Part shown: one piece after another, positions 7,400 through 50,856 of the stretch
How positions within the stretch are numbered: position 1 is the first letter of the stretch
Layout of the letters: each line of letters opens with the position of its first letter
Position numbers and translations under genes: made by a program
The notes under the pieces: generated by a model
Told to the model about the DNA's origin: nothing
Seen by the model: only the letters and a program-made list of their open reading frames with translations
The model's database searches: none
Assembly: GCA_964016885.1 (NCBI GenBank)
Contig: OZ024765.1
Coordinates: 16,306,001 to 16,370,000, forward strand
DNA: 64,000 nucleotides
Direction: 5' to 3'
DNA from: Eledone cirrhosa
Taxonomy: Eukaryota

Positions 7400-8063
7400 T
7401 GATGGCACTTACACTCGCCTACTGCGACGATATCAGAACATAAGCTGGTGACATCTGACTTTGGGAGAAAACTATGCCGGCCTCTCACGCATATCTGTCG
7501 TTGTATGTAAAAGGAGCGTAAGATTTAGTGGCCACTGCCCTCGTGCCACCTATGAGGCTGTGTCCCCGTCAGTGCTTCGGAAACCACAAGCAGTCACTAT
7601 TAACAGAGGGCACAAGCTCTCCTGACCCGAGATGCTGGCCACTGCCATCGTGCCACCTATGAGGCTGTGTCCCCGTCAGTGCTTCGGAAACCACAAGCAG
7701 TCACTATTAACAGAGGGCACAAGCTTTCCTGACCCGAGATGCTGGCTACTGCCATCGTGCCACCTATGAAGATGTGTCACCATTAGTGCTTTGGAAACCA
7801 CAACCAGTCACTATTAACAGAGGGCACAAGCTCTCCTGGCCCGAGATGCTGGCTACTGCCATGGTACCCCCTATGAAGATGTGTCACCATTAGTGCTTTG
7901 GAAACCACAACCAGTCACTAATAACAGGGGGCACAAGCTCTCCTATCCCAATGTCATCTCCAGAAATTCTGGTATTGAAATCCAGGCCGTGGCAACGTCA
8001 ATGAACGACAAACCCAGGTGGAGATCAATTATTGAATCGATTTCGCCTGAGGCCGCCGGATAA
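7400..8063 (+). pseudogene. RTE-clade LINE RT C-terminal relic with internal 107-bp tandem amplification
   Basis: Translates DGTYTRLLRRYQNISW*...VRFSGHC...VLWKPQ...YPNVISRNSG...MNDKPRWR; ~4 tandem units at 7531, 7638, 7745, 7852. Confidence 0.7.
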
Positions 8064-9318: not shown

Positions 9319-9605
9319 CGATATTAATAAATGGAAACTATATTTATAAAACCATATTTATTTCATTATACATATTTCAGGGATACCAAATTAAAATATG
9401 GTATGCCTTCATCAGACAAAATACAATATATAAACAGTTATATAAATAATTTTGACGTACCCTATTAAATGCAACTTTTATTTTAGGAAGCTGTCTGGAT
9501 AGTCATTTATTAATATCGTATATCTACTCCAAAAACTTGTGTCGAGTGCTTTATATCAGTTATAAAATATTTACTTGTATCCCAACAATTTTAAATACAA
9601 CTTTT
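9319..9605. mobile_element. Family A fold-back element
   Basis: Homologous to 3416-3788, with inversion at about 9502. Confidence 0.75.
9359..9423 (-). ncRNA. Type I hammerhead ribozyme
   Basis: tattttgt-CTGATGA-aggcatacca...tggtatccct-GAAA-tatgtaTA-atgaaata. Confidence 0.7.
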
Positions 9606-11134: not shown

Positions 11135-11760
11135 AAATGGTACTGATGGTGATGGTGATGGTGGTGGTGGTGATGGTGAGAAGGAGTATGAGGAGGGCGG
11201 TGATGGTGATGGTAATGAGGAGGAGGAGAAGGAGGAGGATGGTGGCGGTGATGATGATGGTGGCGAAGATGATTGTGGTGGTGGTGGTGACGGTGAATAC
11301 GGTGATGATGATGATGATGATGATGGTAATGATGGTGTTAACGATGATGAAGCTGGTAGTTTCTGGTGGTGATGATGATGGTGATGACAATGAGGAGCAG
11401 GAGAAGAAGGATGAGGTGGTGGTGAGGATGATGGTGGTGAAGATGATTGTGGTGGTGGTGGTGGTGAATACGGTGATGATGATGATGATGATGATGGTAA
11501 TGATGGTGTTAACGATGATGAAGCTGGTAGTTTCTGGTGGTGATGATGATGATGGTGATGACAATGAGGAGCAGGAGAAGAAGGATGAGGTGGTGGTGAG
11601 GATGATGGTGGTGAAGATGATTGTGGTGGTGGTGGTGATGGTGAATACAGTGATGATGATGATGATGATGATGGTAATGATGGTGTTAACGATGATGAAG
11701 GTGGTAGTTTCTGGTGATGATGATAATGATGATGATGACGATGACGATAGATGGGTGATA
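11135..11760. repeat. (GAT/GGT)n trinucleotide compound repeat with ~175-bp higher-order unit
   Basis: gatggtgttaacgatgatgaag recurs 3 times. Confidence 0.9.
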
Positions 11761-11989: not shown

Positions 11990-12655
11990 AGGATTTAATA
12001 GACAGTCTATAAAGGTTAGTTATAGCTGTATGGCAAATTGTGGTGATCCAAAGTAAAATGGTGTGAACCAAGCTTACCATTGGATTAAATAATAAGAAAA
12101 GAAACAGGATTATTAGACAGCAGGGATCAGTTGAGGACATAGTTTAGACAATCAGCAAGGGCAAACATAGATAAGGATGGACTGACGAGATATCTGGTCT
12201 CGGAGACAACAGGTGGACGATGGAAATGAAACTAGGAATTTAACACCACCACCTGAGAGACACATACATTGGCTCAACGTAAAATGGAACTAATCTTACT
12301 CAGCAGCAACTCATGTGCCAGGTTGAGCAATATATTAATATATCACAGATAAAACATGATTTAATAGAAAGTCTATAAAGGTTAGTTATAGCTGTATGAC
12401 AAATTGTGGTTTTCCATAGTAAAATGGTGTGAATGAAGCTTACCATTGCATTAAATGAAAAGAAAAGAAACAGGATTCGACAGCAGGGATCAGTTTAGGA
12501 CATAATCTAGGCAATCATGAAGGGCAAACATAGATGAGGATGGGCTGGCTAGGTCTTTTGTTTGAGGGACACCAGGTGCACGAGGAAAATGAAACGAGGG
12601 TATTCAACATCACCGCCTCACAGGTACATACAGCAGCTCAACATAAAATGGACCT
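11990..12655 (+). pseudogene. Two tandem diverged copies of a LINE (RTE-like) RT tail relic
   Basis: 11992-12295 resembles 12358-12655; degenerate IRQQGSVEDIV...GDNRWT motif. Confidence 0.5.
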
Positions 12656-15823: not shown

Positions 15824-16096
15824 ATATTAAATAAATGGAAACTATATTTATAAAACCATATTTATTTTATTATATATATTTCAAGGGTAACAAGACACAT
15901 TGATACGCTTTCGTCAGATAAAATACAAAGGTTGTTTTATAAATAGAGACATACCCATGGAAATCATACCTTATCGGTTGGAAATTCCCTGGATTTAATA
16001 TCATTGAATATTTACTCCAGTAAACTGTTGAGTGCTCTAAGTCAGTTATAAACATTTATATTTGTTGGATTTCCAACAAATTAAATAAACCTTCTA

Positions 16097-16984: not shown

Positions 16985-17685
16985 AGTTCTCAGGGAGATT
17001 CAGCATGAAACAACGGGTCATTGAGTATCATGGTCCCGTCCCTTAAAGTACAAATACAGACATGATGTAACCTTGCTCTACTTCTCAGGAAGATTCAGCA
17101 TGACACAGCGGGACACTGGGCAGGATGGTTCCGTCCTTTTAAGTACAGATACATACATGATGTAACCTTGCTCTAGTTCTCAGGGAGATTCAGCTTGACA
17201 CAGCGTGTCACTGAGAAGGATGGTTCCGTCCTTTAAAGAACAGATACAGACAAGATGTAACTTTCATTTAGTTGTCAGGGAGATTCAGCTTGAAACAGCG
17301 GGTCACTGAGAAGGTTGGTCCGGTCCTTTTAAGTACAGATCCATACATGATGTAACCTTGCCATACTTCTCAGGGAGATTCAGCATGACACAGCGGGAAA
17401 CTGAGAAGGGTGATCCCGTCCTTTTAAGTAGATACAGACATGATGTAACTTTCATTTAGTTCTCAGGGAGATTCACCATGAAACAGCGCGTCAGTGAGAA
17501 GGGTGGTCCCGTCCTTTTAAGTACAGATACATCACATGTTTGCCATCTGAGTGAATGTAATGGACACAACGTGAAAAACAGTATTTTACTGAGGAAGAAC
17601 ACATGACAGAGGGTCTGGCATTCGAACCCTTGTTCTTCAGAATCAGAACCTGAACCCATTAGCCGTTGAGCCACACCGCTTCTAA
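16985..17685 (-). mobile_element. tRNA-headed SINE with 3' region amplified as ~6 x 95-bp tandem units
   Basis: A box tggctcaacgg and B box ggttcgaatgc near 17615-17675; ttctcagggagattcagc at 16987, 17082, 17177, 17272, 17367, 17460. Confidence 0.75.
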
Positions 17686-18559: not shown

Positions 18560-24732
<6,173 letters not shown>

Positions 24733-27700
24733 ATAAAAACAAATAACGAAACGAAATTAAATTTCGTTTCGTTTGTAACTCACTTTTGTATGACTGACGC
24801 TCAAACAATTAAGTCAAAGATGTACATCCATATATGTATACTGAAATACTAGTATGTATATGAATACACACACGTATACATATGTAGATGTACCAAGTTT
24901 TTTTCACTGATCACTTTACTGTGAGTGGCCAGCTATTCTGTATGTAAACACACAGACAAACCGGTTTTTAGAGTCATACTGGTTTTTGAGGAAACACCTT
25001 TCCTCTATTCTCCAGAAAGCCAGACAAGGAACATTGAACTAGTTTCGTTGTTGTTACAACTCATCAGCAATATTTACCTATCTTCCGGCCTCTCTAGAGA
25101 ATCGTAAAAGCACATATCGCTATATGCTTTTTCTATGAAAATTAGTAGTGGGCAGACCAACTTGCATAGAGTGTGAGTAAGTACCGGTTCAACGGAGACG
25201 ATAAAAACAAATAACGAAACGAAATTAAATTTCGTTTCGTTTGTAACTCACTTTTGTATGACTGACGCTCAAACAATTAAGTCAAAGATGTACATCCATA
25301 TATGTATACTGAAATACTAGTATGTATATGAATACACACACGTATACATATGTAGATGTACCAAGTTTTTTTCACTGATCACTTTACTGTGAGTGGCCAG
25401 CTATTCTGTATGTAAACACACAGACAAACCGGTTTTTAGAGTCATACTGGTTTTTGAGGAAACACCTTTCCTCTATTCTCCAGAAAGCCAGACAAGGAAC
25501 ATTGAACTAGTTTCGTTGTTGTTACAACTCATCAGCAATATTTACCTATCTTCCGGCCTCTCTAGAGAATCGTAAAAGCACATATCGCTATATGCTTTTT
25601 CTATGAAAATTAGTAGTGGGCAGACCAACTTGCATAGAGTGTGAGTAAGTACCGGTTCAACGGAGACGATAAAAACAAATAACGAAACGAAATTAAATTT
25701 CGTTTCGTTTGTAACTCACTTTTGTATGACTGACGCTCAAACAATTAAGTCAAAGATGTACATCCATATATGTATACTGAAATACTAGTATGTATATGAA
25801 TACACACACGTATACATATGTAGATGTACCAAGTTTTTTTCACTGATCACTTTACTGTGAGTGGCCAGCTATTCTGTATGTAAACACACAGACAAACCGG
25901 TTTTTAGAGTCATACTGGTTTTTGAGGAAACACCTTTCCTCTATTCTCCAGAAAGCCAGACAAGGAACATTGAACTAGTTTCGTTGTTGTTACAACTCAT
26001 CAGCAATATTTACCTATCTTCCGGCCTCTCTAGAGAATCGTAAAAGCACATATCGCTATATGCTTTTTCTATGAAAATTAGTAGTGGGCAGACCAACTTG
26101 CATAGAGTGTGAGTAAGTACCGGTTCAACGGAGACGATAAAAACAAATAACGAAACGAAATTAAATTTCGTTTCGTTTGTAACTCACTTTTGTATGACTG
26201 ACGCTCAAACAATTAAGTCAAAGATGTACATCCATATATGTATACTGAAATACTAGTATGTATATGAATACACACACGTATACATATGTAGATGTACCAA
26301 GTTTTTTTCACTGATCACTTTACTGTGAGTGGCCAGCTATTCTGTATGTAAACACACAGACAAACCGGTTTTTAGAGTCATACTGGTTTTTGAGGAAACA
26401 CCTTTCCTCTATTCTCCAGAAAGCCAGACAAGGAACATTGAACTAGTTTCGTTGTTGTTACAACTCATCAGCAATATTTACCTATCTTCCGGCCTCTCTA
26501 GAGAATCGTAAAAGCACATATCGCTATATGCTTTTTCTATGAAAATTAGTAGTGGGCAGACCAACTTGCATAGAGTGTGAGTAAGTACCGGTTCAACGGA
26601 GACGATAAAAACAAATAACGAAACGAAATTAAATTTCGTTTCGTTTGTAACTCACTTTTGTATGACTGACGCTCAAACAATTAAGTCAAAGATGTACATC
26701 CATATATGTATACTGAAATACTAGTATGTATATGAATACACACACGTATACATATGTAGATGTACCAAGTTTTTTTCACTGATCACTTTACTGTGAGTGG
26801 CCAGCTATTCTGTATGTAAACACACAGACAAACCGGTTTTTAGAGTCATACTGGTTTTTGAGGAAACACCTTTCCTCTATTCTCCAGAAAGCCAGACAAG
26901 GAACATTGAACTAGTTTCGTTGTTGTTACAACTCATCAGCAATATTTACCTATCTTCCGGCCTCTCTAGAGAATCGTAAAAGCACATATCGCTATATGCT
27001 TTTTCTATGAAAATTAGTAGTGGGCAGACCAACTTGCATAGAGTGTGAGTAAGTACCGGTTCAACGGAGACGATAAAAACAAATAACGAAACGAAATTAA
27101 ATTTCGTTTCGTTTGTAACTCACTTTTGTATGACTGACGCTCAAACAATTAAGTCAAAGATGTACATCCATATATGTATACTGAAATACTAGTATGTATA
27201 TGAATACACACACGTATACATATGTAGATGTACCAAGTTTTTTTCACTGATCACTTTACTGTGAGTGGCCAGCTATTCTGTATGTAAACACACAGACAAA
27301 CCGGTTTTTAGAGTCATACTGGTTTTTGAGGAAACACCTTTCCTCTATTCTCCAGAAAGCCAGACAAGGAACATTGAACTAGTTTCGTTGTTGTTACAAC
27401 TCATCAGCAATATTTACCTATCTTCCGGCCTCTCTAGAGAATCGTAAAAGCACATATCGCTATATGCTTTTTCTATGAAAATTAGTAGTGGGCAGACCAA
27501 CTTGCATAGAGTGTGAGTAAGTACCGGTTCAACGGAGACGATAAAAACAAATAACGAAACGAAATTAAATTTCGTTTCGTTTGTAACTCACTTTTGTATG
27601 ACTGACGCTCAAACAATTAAGTCAAAGATGTACATCCATATATGTATACTGAAATACTAGTATGTATATGAATACACACACGTATACATATGTAGATGTA

Positions 27701-29724
27701 CCAAGTTTTTTTCACTGATCACTTTACTGTGAGTGGCCAGCTATTCTGTATGTAAACACACAGACAAACCGGTTTTTAGAGTCATACTGGTTTTTGAGGA
27801 AACACCTTTCCTCTATTCTCCAGAAAGCCAGACAAGGAACATTGAACTAGTTTCGTTGTTGTTACAACTCATCAGCAATATTTACCTATCTTCCGGCCTC
27901 TCTAGAGAATCGTAAAAGCACATATCGCTATATGCTTTTTCTATGAAAATTAGTAGTGGGCAGACCAACTTGCATAGAGTGTGAGTAAGTACCGGTTCAA
28001 CGGAGACGATAAAAACAAATAACGAAACGAAATTAAATTTCGTTTCGTTTGTAACTCACTTTTGTATGACTGACGCTCAAACAATTAAGTCAAAGATGTA
28101 CATCCATATATGTATACTGAAATACTAGTATGTATATGAATACACACACGTATACATATGTAGATGTACCAAGTTTTTTTCACTGATCACTTTACTGTGA
28201 GTGGCCAGCTATTCTGTATGTAAACACACAGACAAACCGGTTTTTAGAGTCATACTGGTTTTTGAGGAAACACCTTTCCTCTATTCTCCAGAAAGCCAGA
28301 CAAGGAACATTGAACTAGTTTCGTTGTTGTTACAACTCATCAGCAATATTTACCTATCTTCCGGCCTCTCTAGAGAATCGTAAAAGCACATATCGCTATA
28401 TGCTTTTTCTATGAAAATTAGTAGTGGGCAGACCAACTTGCATAGAGTGTGAGTAAGTACCGGTTCAACGGAGACGATAAAAACAAATAACGAAACGAAA
28501 TTAAATTTCGTTTCGTTTGTAACTCACTTTTGTATGACTGACGCTCAAACAATTAAGTCAAAGATGTACATCCATATATGTATACTGAAATACTAGTATG
28601 TATATGAATACACACACGTATACATATGTAGATGTACCAAGTTTTTTTCACTGATCACTTTACTGTGAGTGGCCAGCTATTCTGTATGTAAACACACAGA
28701 CAAACCGGTTTTTAGAGTCATACTGGTTTTTGAGGAAACACCTTTCCTCTATTCTCCAGAAAGCCAGACAAGGAACATTGAACTAGTTTCGTTGTTGTTA
28801 CAACTCATCAGCAATATTTACCTATCTTCCGGCCTCTCTAGAGAATCGTAAAAGCACATATCGCTATATGCTTTTTCTATGAAAATTAGTAGTGGGCAGA
28901 CCAACTTGCATAGAGTGTGAGTAAGTACCGGTTCAACGGAGACGATAAAAACAAATAACGAAACGAAATTAAATTTCGTTTCGTTTGTAACTCACTTTTG
29001 TATGACTGACGCTCAAACAATTAAGTCAAAGATGTACATCCATATATGTATACTGAAATACTAGTATGTATATGAATACACACACGTATACATATGTAGA
29101 TGTACCAAGTTTTTTTCACTGATCACTTTACTGTGAGTGGCCAGCTATTCTGTATGTAAACACACAGACAAACCGGTTTTTAGAGTCATACTGGTTTTTG
29201 AGGAAACACCTTTCCTCTATTCTCCAGAAAGCCAGACAAGGAACATTGAACTAGTTTCGTTGTTGTTACAACTCATCAGCAATATTTACCTATCTTCCGG
29301 CCTCTCTAGAGAATCGTAAAAGCACATATCGCTATATGCTTTTTCTATGAAAATTAGTAGTGGGCAGACCAACTTGCATAGAGTGTGAGTAAGTACCGGT
29401 TCAACGGAGACGATAAAAACAAATAACGAAACGAAATTAAATTTCGTTTCGTTTGTAACTCACTTTTGTATGACTGACGCTCAAACAATTAAGTCAAAGA
29501 TGTACATCCATATATGTATACTGAAATACTAGTATGTATATGAATACACACACGTATACATATGTAGATGTACCAAGTTTTTTTCACTGATCACTTTACT
29601 GTGAGTGGCCAGCTATTCTGTATGTAAACACACAGACAAACCGGTTTTTAGAGTCATACTGGTTTTTGAGGAAACACCTTTCCTCTATTCTCCAGAAAGC
29701 CAGACAAGGAACATTGAACTAGTT
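24733..29724 (-). mobile_element. 468-bp tandem array (~10.7 units) of a hammerhead-containing retrozyme-like element
   Basis: Units start at 24733+468n (confirmed by the period of the identical 60-aa ORF); one type I HHR per full unit on the minus strand. Confidence 0.85.
25030..25074 (-). ncRNA. Type I hammerhead ribozyme (repeats every 468 bp to 29242-29286; 10 complete copies)
   Basis: aatattg-CTGATGA-gttgt-aaca-acaac-GAAAC-ta-GTT^caatgtt; 7-bp stem I, 5-bp stem II, palindromic AACTAGTT stem III. Confidence 0.85.
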
Positions 29725-30350
29725 AAACCGGTTTGTCTGTGTGTTTACATACAGAATAGCTGGCCACTCACAGTAAAGTGATCAGTGAAAAAAACTTGGT
29801 ACATCTACATATGTATACGTGTGTGTATTCATATACATACTAGTATTTCAGTATACATATATGGATGTACATCTTTGACTTAATTGTTTGAGCGTCAGTC
29901 ATACAAAAGTGAGTTACAAACGAAACGAAATTTAATTTCGTTTCGTTATTTGTTTTTATCGTCTCCGTTGAACCGGTACTTACTCACACTCTATGCAAGT
30001 TGGTCTGCCCACTACTAATTTTCATAGAAAAAGCATATAGCGATATGTGCTTTTACGATTCTCTAGAGAGGCCGGAAGATAGGTAAATATTGCTGATGAG
30101 TTGTAACAACAACGAAACTAGTTCAATGTTCCTTGTCTGGCTTTCTGGAGAATAGAGGAAAGGTGTTTCCTCAAAAACCAGTATGACTCTAAAAACCGGT
30201 TTGTCTGTGTGTTTACATACAGAATAGCTGGCCACTCACAGTAAAGTGATCAGTGAAAAAAACTTGGTACATCTACATATGTATACGTGTGTGTATTCAT
30301 ATACATACTAGTATTTCAGTATACATATATGGATGTACATCTTTGACTTA
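29725..30350 (+). mobile_element. Inverted 1.3-unit arm of the 468-bp array
   Basis: Reverse complement of the unit, from aaaccggttt to ctttgactta, then (TA)n. Confidence 0.9.
30086..30130 (+). ncRNA. Type I hammerhead ribozyme (predicted cleavage after GUU at 30123)
   Basis: Same motif as 25030-25074, on the plus strand. Confidence 0.85.
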
Positions 30351-30695
30351 TATATAAATATATATATATATATATAAATATATATATGCATATAAATATA
30401 TATAAATATATATATATATATATAAATATATATATGCATATAAATATATATATGCATATAAATATATATAAATATATATATATATATAAATATATATATG
30501 CATATAAATATATATATAAATATATATATGCATATAAATATATATAAATATATATATGCATATAAATATATATAAATATATATATGCATATAAATATATA
30601 TAAATATATATATGCATATAATTATATTTATATATTTTTTTATATATATATATACAATATATTAACAAATGGAAATTTATTTATAAAACCATATT

Positions 30696-30761
30696 TATTT
30701 CATTATACATATTTCAAGGGCCACCAGAGCAAACCATGGTGCGCTTTCATCAGATAAAATA
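30696..30761 (-). ncRNA. Type I hammerhead ribozyme (family A copy 30657-30838)
   Basis: tattttat-CTGATGA-aagcgcacca...tggtggccctt-GAAA-tatgtaTA-atgaaata. Confidence 0.7.
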
Positions 30762-31691: not shown

Positions 31692-31762
31692 TATTTTATT
31701 ATGCGCATTTCAAAAACAAATATCATCATGCAATAACATTTGTGTTTTCATCAGATAAAATA
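31692..31762 (-). ncRNA. Type I hammerhead ribozyme
   Basis: tattttat-CTGATGA-aaacacaaatgttatt...gatgatatttgttttt-GAAA-tgcgcaTA-ataaaata; palindromic ATGCGCAT. Confidence 0.7.
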
Positions 31763-43689: not shown

Positions 43690-44048
43690 TACATTCTAAG
43701 TGTTAATTGAACAAGTACTTTCATGCTTTCGCAATCTTCAGGTTCATGATATGTAGTGACAGTCGAGTTTGCAATTTTCATACAGGTAAGAATATTTTCG
43801 AAACAGCGAGTGGGTTTGAAATTATTAGAAATGTAAGCTATCGCCGTATTTTGACTAAAGAAATTAAAGAAATTATTTAGCCTGATAGTGGGGCTAAGAC
43901 CCCTCGGAGAGATGGAAAAAGATTGAGTATTGAGTACGTCAATACTCATCTTTTTCCATTTCTCCGAGGGTTCTTAACCCCACTATCAGGCTAAATAATT
44001 TCTTTAATTTCTTTAGTCAAAATACGGCGATAGCTTACATTTCTAATA
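43690..44048. mobile_element. Family E fold-back element
   Basis: ~110-bp inverted arms about 43823-43932 and 43938-44048; homologue at 8157-8318. Confidence 0.75.
43708..43746 (-). ncRNA. Minimal type I hammerhead ribozyme
   Basis: tgaac-CTGAAGA-t-tgc-gaaa-gca-t-GAAA-gtacTT-gttca; palindromic AAGTACTT. Confidence 0.65.
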
Positions 44049-46368: not shown

Positions 46369-46568
46369 NNNNNNNNNNNNNNNNNNNNNNNNNNNNNNNN
46401 NNNNNNNNNNNNNNNNNNNNNNNNNNNNNNNNNNNNNNNNNNNNNNNNNNNNNNNNNNNNNNNNNNNNNNNNNNNNNNNNNNNNNNNNNNNNNNNNNNNN
46501 NNNNNNNNNNNNNNNNNNNNNNNNNNNNNNNNNNNNNNNNNNNNNNNNNNNNNNNNNNNNNNNNNNNN
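46369..46568. other. Assembly gap (200 N)
   Basis: Run of N. Confidence 1.
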
Positions 46569-46837: not shown

Positions 46838-46870
46838 GACGACGTTTCGGGCATAAGCCCTTCCTCAGGT
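46838..46870 (-). ncRNA. HHR core of family F (46750-46900), weak stem I
   Basis: CTGAGGA-a-gggc-ttat-gccc-GAAACGTC; homologue at 53095-53128(+) CTGAAGA-agggcttatgcac-GAAACGTC. Confidence 0.5.
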
Positions 46871-48602: not shown

Positions 48603-50300
48603 CTCTCTGTCAACCTCAGTGTCTCACACACACACACTCTCTCTCCCTATCTATCTATCTCTTTCTATATATATATATATATGTCTCTCCGTCAATCTCA
48701 GTGTCTCACACACACTCTCTCTCTCTCCCTATCTATCTCTCTCTCTCTCTATATATATATGTCTCTCTGTCAATCTCAGTGTCTCACACACACTCTCTCT
48801 CTCTCTATATATATATGTCTCTCTGTCAACCTCAGTGTCTCACACACTCTCTCTCTCTCCCTATCTATCTATCTCTTTCTATATATATATATATATGTCT
48901 CTCTGTCAACCTCAGTGTCTCACACACTCTCTCTCTCTCCCTATCTATCTATCTCTTTCTATATATATATATATATGTCTCTCTGTCAACCTCAGTGTCT
49001 CACACACTCTCTCTCTCTCCCTATCTATCTATCTCTCTCTCTCTCTATATATATATGTCTCTCTGTCAATCTCAGTGTCTCACACACACTCTCTCTCTCT
49101 CTATATATATATGTCTCTCTGTCAACCTCAGTGTCTCACACACTCTCTCTCTCTCCCTATCTATCTATCTCTTTCTATATATATATATATATGTCTCTCT
49201 GTCAATCTCAGTGTCTCACACACTCTCTCTCTCTCTCCCTATCTATCTCTCTCTCTCTATATATATATATATGTCTCTCTGTCAATCTCAGTGTCTCACA
49301 CACTCTCTCTCTCACTCTATCTACCTGTCTCTCTCTCTCCCTCTATATATATATTTCTGTCAATCTCAGTGTCTCACACTCACTCTCTCCCTCTCTGTAT
49401 ATCTCTCTGTCAATCTCAGTGTCTCACACTCTCACTCTATCTCCCTATCTCTATATATTTCTATATCCCCCCCCCCCCCTCTATCTACCTATATGTATGA
49501 TTTTCTTTCTATCTTAATGCCTCACACTCTCTCTATATTACTATCTCTCTAGCTCTCCCTCTCTCTCCAACCCTTAACTATCTCTCTCTATACCACTCTA
49601 CAGTGCTCTCTCTCCCTAAACTGTTCTTTTCTTTCACCTCGAAAACCTACTTTTTTTTACTTATCTCTCGCTCTCTCTCTCTCTCTCTATCTTACTATCT
49701 CTCTAGCTCTCCCTCTATCTCTAACCCTTAACTAGCTCTCTCTATACCACTCTACAGTGCTCTCTCTCCCTAAACTGTTCTTTTCTTTCACCACGAAAAA
49801 CTACTTTTTTTTTACTTATCTCTCGCTCTCTCTCTCTCTCTATCTTACTATCTCTCTAGCTCTCCCTCTCTCTCTAACCCTTAACTAGCTCTCTCTATAC
49901 CATTCTACAGTGCTCTCTCTCCCTAAACTGTTCTCCTTTTCTTTCACCTCGAAAACCTACTTTTTTTTACTTATCTCTCGCTCTCTCTCTCTCTCTATCT
50001 ATCTTACTATCTCTCTAGCTCTCCCTCTCTCTCTAACCCTTAACTAGCTCTCTCTATACCACTCTACAGTGCTCTCTCCCCCTAAACTGTTCTCCTTTTA
50101 TTTCACCTCGAAAACCTACTTTTTCTTACTTATCTCTCGCTCTCTCTATATATATATTACTATCTCTCTAGCTCTCCCTCTCTCTCCAACCCTTAACTAT
50201 CTCTCTCTATACCACTCTACAGTGCTCTCTCTCCCTAAACTGTTCTCCTTTTCTTTCACCTCGAAAACCAACTTTTTTTTTACTTATATCTCTCTCTCTC
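48595..50300. repeat. CT-rich minisatellites (~60-bp unit to 49440, ~150-bp unit 49530-50300)
   Basis: gtcaatctcagtgtctcac and ccactctacagtgctctctctccctaaactg recur. Confidence 0.9.
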
Positions 50301-50856
50301 TATCCTACATATCTATGTCTCACCCACCTTATACTAACTACATCTCTGCTATATTTCCCCCTCACTCAATCTATCTTACTCTTTTATAGCATATCTCTTC
50401 CATTTCATCCGCCATTCATTACCTATTTCTCTCTCTCTCTATATATATATATATACACATATATATATATATATATATATATTTATAAATATATATATAT
50501 CCATATATAAACATGTATACATATATATTTATGTATATATACATATAAACACACACACATGAATATATATATAAACATATATATTTATGTATTTATACAT
50601 ATAAACACAGACACACACACGCACACACACATATATATATATATATACACATACATAAATATGTGCTTCTACATATATATATATATAATATATATAGTTA
50701 TGTATATATACATATAAGGACATGTATAGATATAAACATATATATGTGTGTATATATACATATTATCACACACACACACCACACACCACATAAATCCCCA
50801 CACACACATAATATATATATATGTAGAAGCACATATTTATGTATATATACATATAA

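Follow-up and report, generated by a model that had tools for sequence, protein, structure and literature searches.

The array at positions 24733 to 30350 of a 64,000-nt stretch of the Eledone cirrhosa genome (contig OZ024765.1, positions 16,306,001 to 16,370,000 of the forward strand; hereafter the window) is one young copy of a dispersed family of non-LTR (long terminal repeat) retrozymes, tandem repeats of a 468-bp unit that carries a hammerhead ribozyme motif, and is not an artefact. It consists of two inverted arms, an arrangement that is the normal form of the family and has fixed ends. We consider it likely, taking the explanation as a whole, that this is a non-autonomous hammerhead retroelement very recently inserted by the protein of a Penelope-like element (PLE), a class of retrotransposon. 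Mobilization of the retrozyme by a PLE is the part held with high confidence; priming from both target ends is probable, and the sequences also make a circular template a likely one. An initial annotation, made from the window alone, had proposed a young non-LTR retrozyme that PLEs mobilize through repeated reverse transcription of a monomer, and the copies found across the genome support that proposal.

In the window, the long arm keeps a perfect 468-bp period with zero differences over 10.67 units (copy number as assembled), and the short arm is an exact inverted copy of 626 bp, or 1.34 units, which refines the earlier estimate of about 10.7 head-to-tail units and an inverted 1.3-mer. The complete type I hammerhead claimed for each full unit is present, with ten minus-strand copies in the long arm and one plus-strand copy in the short arm (Table 1). 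Monomer positions are numbered in RNA sense from the first base 3' of the ribozyme cut (U1, at 30124). At the inversion junction, the long arm reaches 8 nt beyond a cut site and ends at the palindrome of stem III (U461), and the short arm starts at U70, within another palindrome. TA tracts with identical variant units flank the array on both sides, as had been noticed before; the best candidate for a target duplication is 15 nt of nearly pure TA and hence ambiguous. The window unit carries a G5 variant that is also present at two other loci (L031 and L052).

The search for further loci that the initial annotation had called for yielded 464 candidates, and the best 29 (the window and 28 others) were scored. 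Family copies at these loci are ~99–100% identical to the window unit. Two arms in the same relative orientation occur at 23 of the 29 loci, 21 with both arms long and two with a second arm of 10–12 nt, and wherever both arms are long the RNA 3' ends face outward. One outer end lies at site A (~U304, range U300–304) and the other at site B (U227–234) at all 22 loci readable at both ends (L048, whose right end lies in a gap, was excluded from end counts); the chance of this outcome under an independent 50:50 choice of ends is 2e-7. No A+A or B+B pair was seen at the retrozyme-only loci examined, and all 22 readable loci have an inverted 5'-truncated copy with a tail at one end only. Almost all outer ends adjoin (TA)n. 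One copy inserted in non-repeat DNA (L037) has a 12-bp non-TA target duplication, and candidate duplications of 11–13 nt were found at several further loci. An older family copy of 93% identity (L099:5938-6157) has identical B and A ends.

Two related families share this organization. Subfamily A2 (L169–L200; 876 candidates, 39 scored) has a 469-nt unit that is 86% identical, a GUC cut site, and arrays of over 14 units; eight of nine readable two-arm loci have A+B ends. Family B (L099:7579-9000 and L109–L138; 443 candidates, 40 scored), also young, is homologous to the 468-bp family and has a 511-nt unit with a GUA cut site and an internal TA tract of varying length; its A+B ends lie at homologous positions at 8/8 independent loci, with L116 and L118 counted as one as probable duplicates. 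Loci with one end outside the stretch or within the unit's own TA tract were left out of these counts (L174 and L183 for A2; L112, L120/129, L131, and L138 for family B). The predicted folds of all three families place site B within or next to a hairpin loop.

Both arms exceed one monomer at 17 of the 21 loci with two long arms, and the longest arm has 14.1 units. Five substitutions are each private to one locus (L042, L043, L044, L045, and L050) and occur there in every covering unit of both arms (one unit of L042 is misaligned). By our count there are ~23 non-fixed substitutions in 104.5 kb, about 2e-4 per base, excluding terminal T301 changes and a junction cluster at L050. Crossings of the ribozyme cut site are perfect in 216 of 217 cases, which disfavors end-to-end template jumping on linear monomers. 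Inner arm ends fall at a cut site in 2 of 51 cases (2.3 expected, thus no enrichment) and are evenly spread (Rayleigh p 0.54). The multimeric arms, the locus-private variants shared between them, and the scar-free crossings together favor a model in which a circle is copied over and over, with priming at both ends of the target.

PLEs abound in this genome: there are 10,597 GIY-YIG candidates, 150 of which were scored. All six long PLE frames scanned match a reverse transcriptase (RT), and four of the six match GIY-YIG too; a CxxC motif precedes the C-terminal endonuclease (EN), in the form CX4CX2C in the L105-type PLE. With RT, CxxC, and C-terminal GIY-YIG, these PLEs are of the Neptune/Nematis type by the criterion of PMC8557442; Neptune and Nematis are treated here as one type. 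Three such PLE families have inverted arms, tails of ~39–62 nt, and ends in TA tracts, and the AT-rich or microsatellite target is common to the retrozyme family and the young PLEs of this genome. The L105-type PLE is itself young, as 40/40 scored matches are at 100% among the matches listed. A near-full tandem representative of 4,796 bp (L201, C3:191805000-191813500; copies 99.7% identical) contains two overlapping frames of 455 aa (no Pfam match) and 784 aa (RT-EN), either a natural pair or the product of a frameshift, and matches Pfam RVT_1 and GIY-YIG above cut-off. A hammerhead-like stretch in this element appears degenerate.

A chimeric locus (L169/L170, C1 41.49 Mb) links the two kinds of element. 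A 2.4-kb L105-type PLE arm, which starts at the B (short) end and is broken off inside the RT, joins a 42-nt inverted retrozyme piece followed by a 2.7-unit A2 arm that ends at site A; no PLE continuation was found past the retrozyme arm. This layout obeys the B+A arrangement and suggests one event that used both PLE and retrozyme RNA. We lean toward the L105-type PLE as the helper. A pattern search gave 761 matches against 9 in a control; the 100 listed included the chimera and were otherwise mostly family B-like. At four loci (L083, L099, L100, and L103), sequences similar to A2 and B lie near PLEs; they were considered as pseudo-LTRs (pLTRs) and set aside as separate insertions in TA tracts, and two loci that adjoin older PLE pieces (L057 and L041) were not counted as chimeras. 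No pLTR parent was found among 50 GIY-YIG loci or L201.

In each hammerhead, illustrated here by that of the short arm, stem I pairs 30086-30092 with 30124-30130 (7 bp including one G-U), and the core consists of CUGAUGA (30093-30099), a 5-bp stem II (30100-30113), GAAAC, and a GUU site with the predicted cut after 30123. The Rfam model HH9 matches 30075-30146 with 34 bits (E 2.7e-6), under its gathering score of 52, and at gathering score Rfam has no match anywhere in the 64-kb window; sub-threshold Rfam matches to microRNAs and small RNAs were taken as chance. Because stem III is a single pair closed by a palindromic CUAG loop, the monomer hammerhead fold is weak. A comparison of 11 related hammerheads revealed 18 both-sided changes in stems I and II, a number reached by 0/500 shuffles and by none of the slid controls (≤4), and the count of covarying pairs (six) did not exceed that of the shuffles (104/500). 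Self-cleavage of the unit's transcripts is predicted from motif and covariation. The 468-nt monomer is non-coding, with 36% GC, no LTR structure, and no ATG-initiated open reading frame (ORF) over 20 aa, and the RT/GIY-YIG ORF of an autonomous PLE is absent from it. Folded as a circle, it has a minimum free energy of -152 kcal/mol (z -9.3 versus 40 shuffles; antisense z -4.2).

We infer the following course of events, from transcription, cleavage, circle, and dimer to the identity of the helper, from the DNA sequence. Tandem copies would be transcribed, and the hammerhead, probably as a double hammerhead, would cut the RNA into 468-nt monomers that are circularized. A PLE RT/GIY-YIG protein would nick both strands of a TA tract, and cDNA would be primed at both target ends, starting at internal RNA site A for one and site B for the other. 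Each cDNA would extend over 0.1 to 14 units as it circles the template, and short overlaps would serve to join one cDNA to the other. The result would be inverted arms facing outward, with a ~74-nt tail as the difference between them. The structure of the copies suggests that the arrays are born as multimers in one event, rather than by satellite growth.

Several observations weigh against this account. Six of the 29 loci have a single arm only, and the 29, as the best-scoring of 464, are biased to young copies. Inner junctions are near-mirror (within 12 nt) at 5 of 21 loci, where 1.1 are expected (p 0.004), as in fold-back. At L048 and L056 a variant is found in only 2–3 units, which implies some unit copying or mixed templates. 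In A2, one end lies 1 nt beyond the ribozyme cut (L188) and another at a non-standard position (L177). The overlap at the chimera is 1 nt, and a deletion between adjacent insertions could yield the same structure; L036 joins a retrozyme A end to a 3' piece of an L105-type PLE, an A+A pair that breaks the rule if it arose in one event. L105-type elements make up 13 of 50 sampled GIY-YIG loci, so adjacency to one is not rare. In blastn comparisons, neither L201 nor the PLE portions of the 50 GIY-YIG loci matched the unit significantly, so it is not a visible pLTR derivative of the PLEs compared; a matching PLE could still exist, since 150 of the 10,597 candidates were scored. The covariation set is small and its copies are related to one another, and the support is all genomic.

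Insertion by a PLE from both target ends could also have drawn on long, uncut linear multimer transcripts of existing arrays instead of circles. We judge this unlikely. The GUU site and the one-pair stem III do predict slow cleavage of the monomer, uncut RNA is the main substrate of the Anolis PLE (PMC11167929), eight of nine Xenopus dimers were uncleaved in vitro (bioRxiv 2026.07.22.740005), and scar-free cut sites are equally compatible with such templates. However, arms of up to 14 units would shorten in every generation without regrowth, and locus-private variants in all units require a one-unit bottleneck at some step. Deviations in A-run length are mirrored between the arms at 0 of 23 positions, which counts against a linear multimer only if the arms start in the same unit, and the deviations may be assembly errors.

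The second arm would need no second primer if one cDNA, or an antisense RNA, folded back at a hairpin and copied itself, as self-priming has been proposed for Penelope (PMC3846280). The near-mirror junctions fit this, as do the palindromes at both inner ends of the window array and two loci (L043 and L055) whose arm lengths differ by about one tail. Yet 16 of the 21 junctions lack near-mirror positions, the two arms often differ greatly in length, with either one the longer, and the outer end of the second arm is fixed at a site of its own. A PLE arm joined to a retrozyme arm is impossible by self-copying, and mirror junctions may also come from hairpin-aided joining of two cDNAs or from RT collision. 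Fold-back is therefore improbable.

It is also quite improbable that short PLE-type insertions expanded later at the DNA level through unequal crossover, slippage, or conversion, as in the satellite model discussed in bioRxiv 2026.07.22.740005. The variants confined to 2–3 units at L048 and L056 are what such expansion would leave, but almost every one of these loci, very young as they are, already has multimers in both arms, and crossover should usually leave mosaic variants, whereas the private variants are fixed over both inverted arms. As for the assembly or read fold-back artefact that the initial annotation had entertained for the inversion, the 100% identity across 5.6 kb and a unit number taken from the assembly would suit it, but it is hardly credible given that two inverted arms are the standard form of the family, with the same fixed ends on many contigs, locus-specific variants, and target duplications, that the independent run X1 has the same ends with TA loose ends (12 contigs at U304, 3 at U234), and that the window's inner ends lie 77 nt off mirror positions between flanks that are not inverted copies.

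The unit is partly contained in at least 20 listed sequencing runs under 17 organism labels. No RNA run is among the listed holders, which speaks neither for nor against expression. Four of the 24 listed runs were compared in detail, and the runs compared are DNA or of unknown kind. In run X1 (organism A, kind unknown), a sister haplotype reaches a very high summed depth and has TA loose ends at U304 and U234. Runs X2 and X5 contain the unit only in low-depth contigs (about 10–90), and raw DNA reads of X21 (organism E) include two partial reads in 1.9 Gb, though X7 of organism E holds 55% of words. Given this low depth and near-absence, we do not claim horizontal transfer, because carry-over is the simpler reading. 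On window positions 25000-25467, run X2 (kind unknown) gave one 503-nt self-closing contig of depth 10, whose haplotype, G5 plus A343G, is that of L052 and not the genomic majority.

Table 1. Parts of the retrozyme array and its TA flanks, in window positions
Feature	Positions	Strand	Remarks
Left target, TA microsatellite tract	18566..24732		Repeat scan
Long arm, 10.67 units of 468 bp	24733..29724	- (RNA-sense strand)	Outer end 24733 = U304 (site A)
Single cut-to-cut monomer	25037..25504	-	Predicted 468-nt RNA
Ten complete type I hammerheads, 468-bp spacing	25030..29286	-	First 25030-25074, last 29242-29286
Inversion junction 29724/29725	29717..29734		Neither overlap nor inserted bases
Short inverted arm, 1.34 units	29725..30350	+	Outer end 30350 = U227 (site B)
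Site B hairpin	29875..29892	+	Predicted fold; site B ends (U227-234) in or beside its loop
Tail from site B to site A, ~74 nt (U231-U304)	29886..29959	+	13-bp perfect hairpin 29919-29947
Type I hammerhead, predicted cut after 30123	30086..30130	+	Palindromic AACUAGUU stem III region, suits double hammerhead
Right target, TA microsatellite tract	30351..30662		Repeat scan

The window also holds a separate dispersed hammerhead-like family with CUGAYGA, a long loop, GAAA, and a full 7-bp stem I, found at 9360-9422, 15864-15924, 30697-30760, 31693-31761, 52339-52402, and 56659-56727 on the minus strand and at 52482-52545 on the plus strand, with 52339-52545 forming an inverted pair; these are possibly ends of another PLE-type element. 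Further CUGANGA...GAAA motifs lie at 12182, 14588, 15337, 31259, and 53097 (plus) and at 46868, 43741, 16473, and 12963 (minus), and the 3' region of PLE family L092/L104 contains a match to the motif at 43741. Elsewhere in the genome, a different short hammerhead-like element makes up the left and right flanks of L055, its two copies inverted relative to each other (98 nt at 98%). Other tandem repeats of the window are at 7529-7944 (107 bp), 11201-11735 (174 bp), 16985-17531 (95 bp), and 49527-50301 (153 bp), and a 200-base assembly gap spans 46369-46568.

In L1 twin priming, both target ends prime cDNA on the RNA, and the resulting inversion is joined at short overlaps; only a minority of L1 insertions take this form, their second site varies, and they end in poly(A). 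The two-arm retrozyme form, in contrast, is the majority outcome and uses two fixed internal sites without poly(A). We tentatively propose, as an idea that may well prove wrong, a programmed twin priming by PLE proteins in which each of two fixed RNA sites is assigned to one target strand. On a ribozyme-made circle both active sites would perform rolling-circle reverse transcription, giving two inverted multimers per event; the complex could hold helper and retrozyme RNA together, and access to it would come by structure, not by pLTR descent. If true, this would account both for the inverted-plus-tail structure of PLEs and for the birth of retrozyme arrays.

The class of the element, the non-LTR retrozymes, is known. 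As in other animal members (PMC7229834; bioRxiv 2026.07.22.740005), the units are dispersed and tandem, have GC below 50%, one type I hammerhead each, and no ORF or LTR, make long target duplications (>4 bp) where visible, and co-occur with PLEs. Stem III resembles that of axolotl HHR_Amex1, which requires a dimer (PMC7229834), and the unit, at 468 nt, is longer than the 150–450 bp quoted there. Plant LTR retrozymes are different, with type III hammerheads in LTRs and 4-bp duplications against the type I fold, tandem units, and 12-bp duplication seen here. For re-entry into the genome, PMC7229834 proposes that circles are reverse-transcribed into tandem cDNA, a step for which PLEs are candidates, and the Xenopus study (bioRxiv 2026.07.22.740005) describes pLTR relatedness and a crossover model; between them these papers offer RT of the circle by PLEs or long interspersed elements, or pLTR origin with crossover, and we found no pLTR homology in the 468-nt unit. 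The available portions of their texts describe neither insertions with two inverted arms nor ends that are fixed in pairs nor a preference for TA targets, and the words "inverted" and "microsatellite" occur 0 times in the PMC7229834 main text. Our literature search, which covered main texts, found no account of paired-end two-arm retrozyme insertions, though a prior description is possible; among the papers listed for one of its queries, none held the word "cephalopod". The regular architecture of an A-arm and a B-arm, both multimeric and seen in three families, is thus new to the literature searched.

Among PLE-mobilized elements, the non-autonomous Chlamys elements of Chlamydomonas such as MRC1 (PMC8557442) likewise form multicopy head-to-tail insertions. 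Unlike the unit, which has a hammerhead and no detected PLE similarity, these elements share a similar 3' end with their helper and belong to a clade without canonical hammerheads. A further structural parallel is with endonuclease-bearing (EN+) PLEs, whose inverted copy is 5'-truncated and comes with a tail (PMC8557442, PMC3846280). PMC8557442 describes an inverted copy, a 30–40 bp tail, and (TA)n targets and leaves the mechanism open. The purified Poseidon protein PAc (PMC11167929), a predicted dimer, nicks and extends both target strands and begins RT at two internal sites, which mark the limits of the tail. The retrozymes differ in that their template is a 468-nt non-coding unit, their tail is ~74 nt as against 30–40, and both arms are multimers; they also use each site in one arm, whereas the PAc study reports no difference in start sites between strands. 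How retrozymes re-enter the genome, and how PLEs acquire an inverted copy and a one-sided tail, are open questions in PMC7229834, PMC8557442, and PMC11167929; this family makes both addressable in one in vitro assay, since its start sites are defined to the base, its substrate is 468 nt long, its target is (TA)n, and it comes with a candidate for the helper protein. The two-arm architecture connects the spread of retrozymes with the chemistry of PLEs at base resolution. Features that the retrozymes have in common with EN+ PLEs are inverted arms, a tail confined to one end, AT-rich targets, a pair of internal start sites, and extension of both strands (PMC8557442, PMC3846280, PMC11167929).

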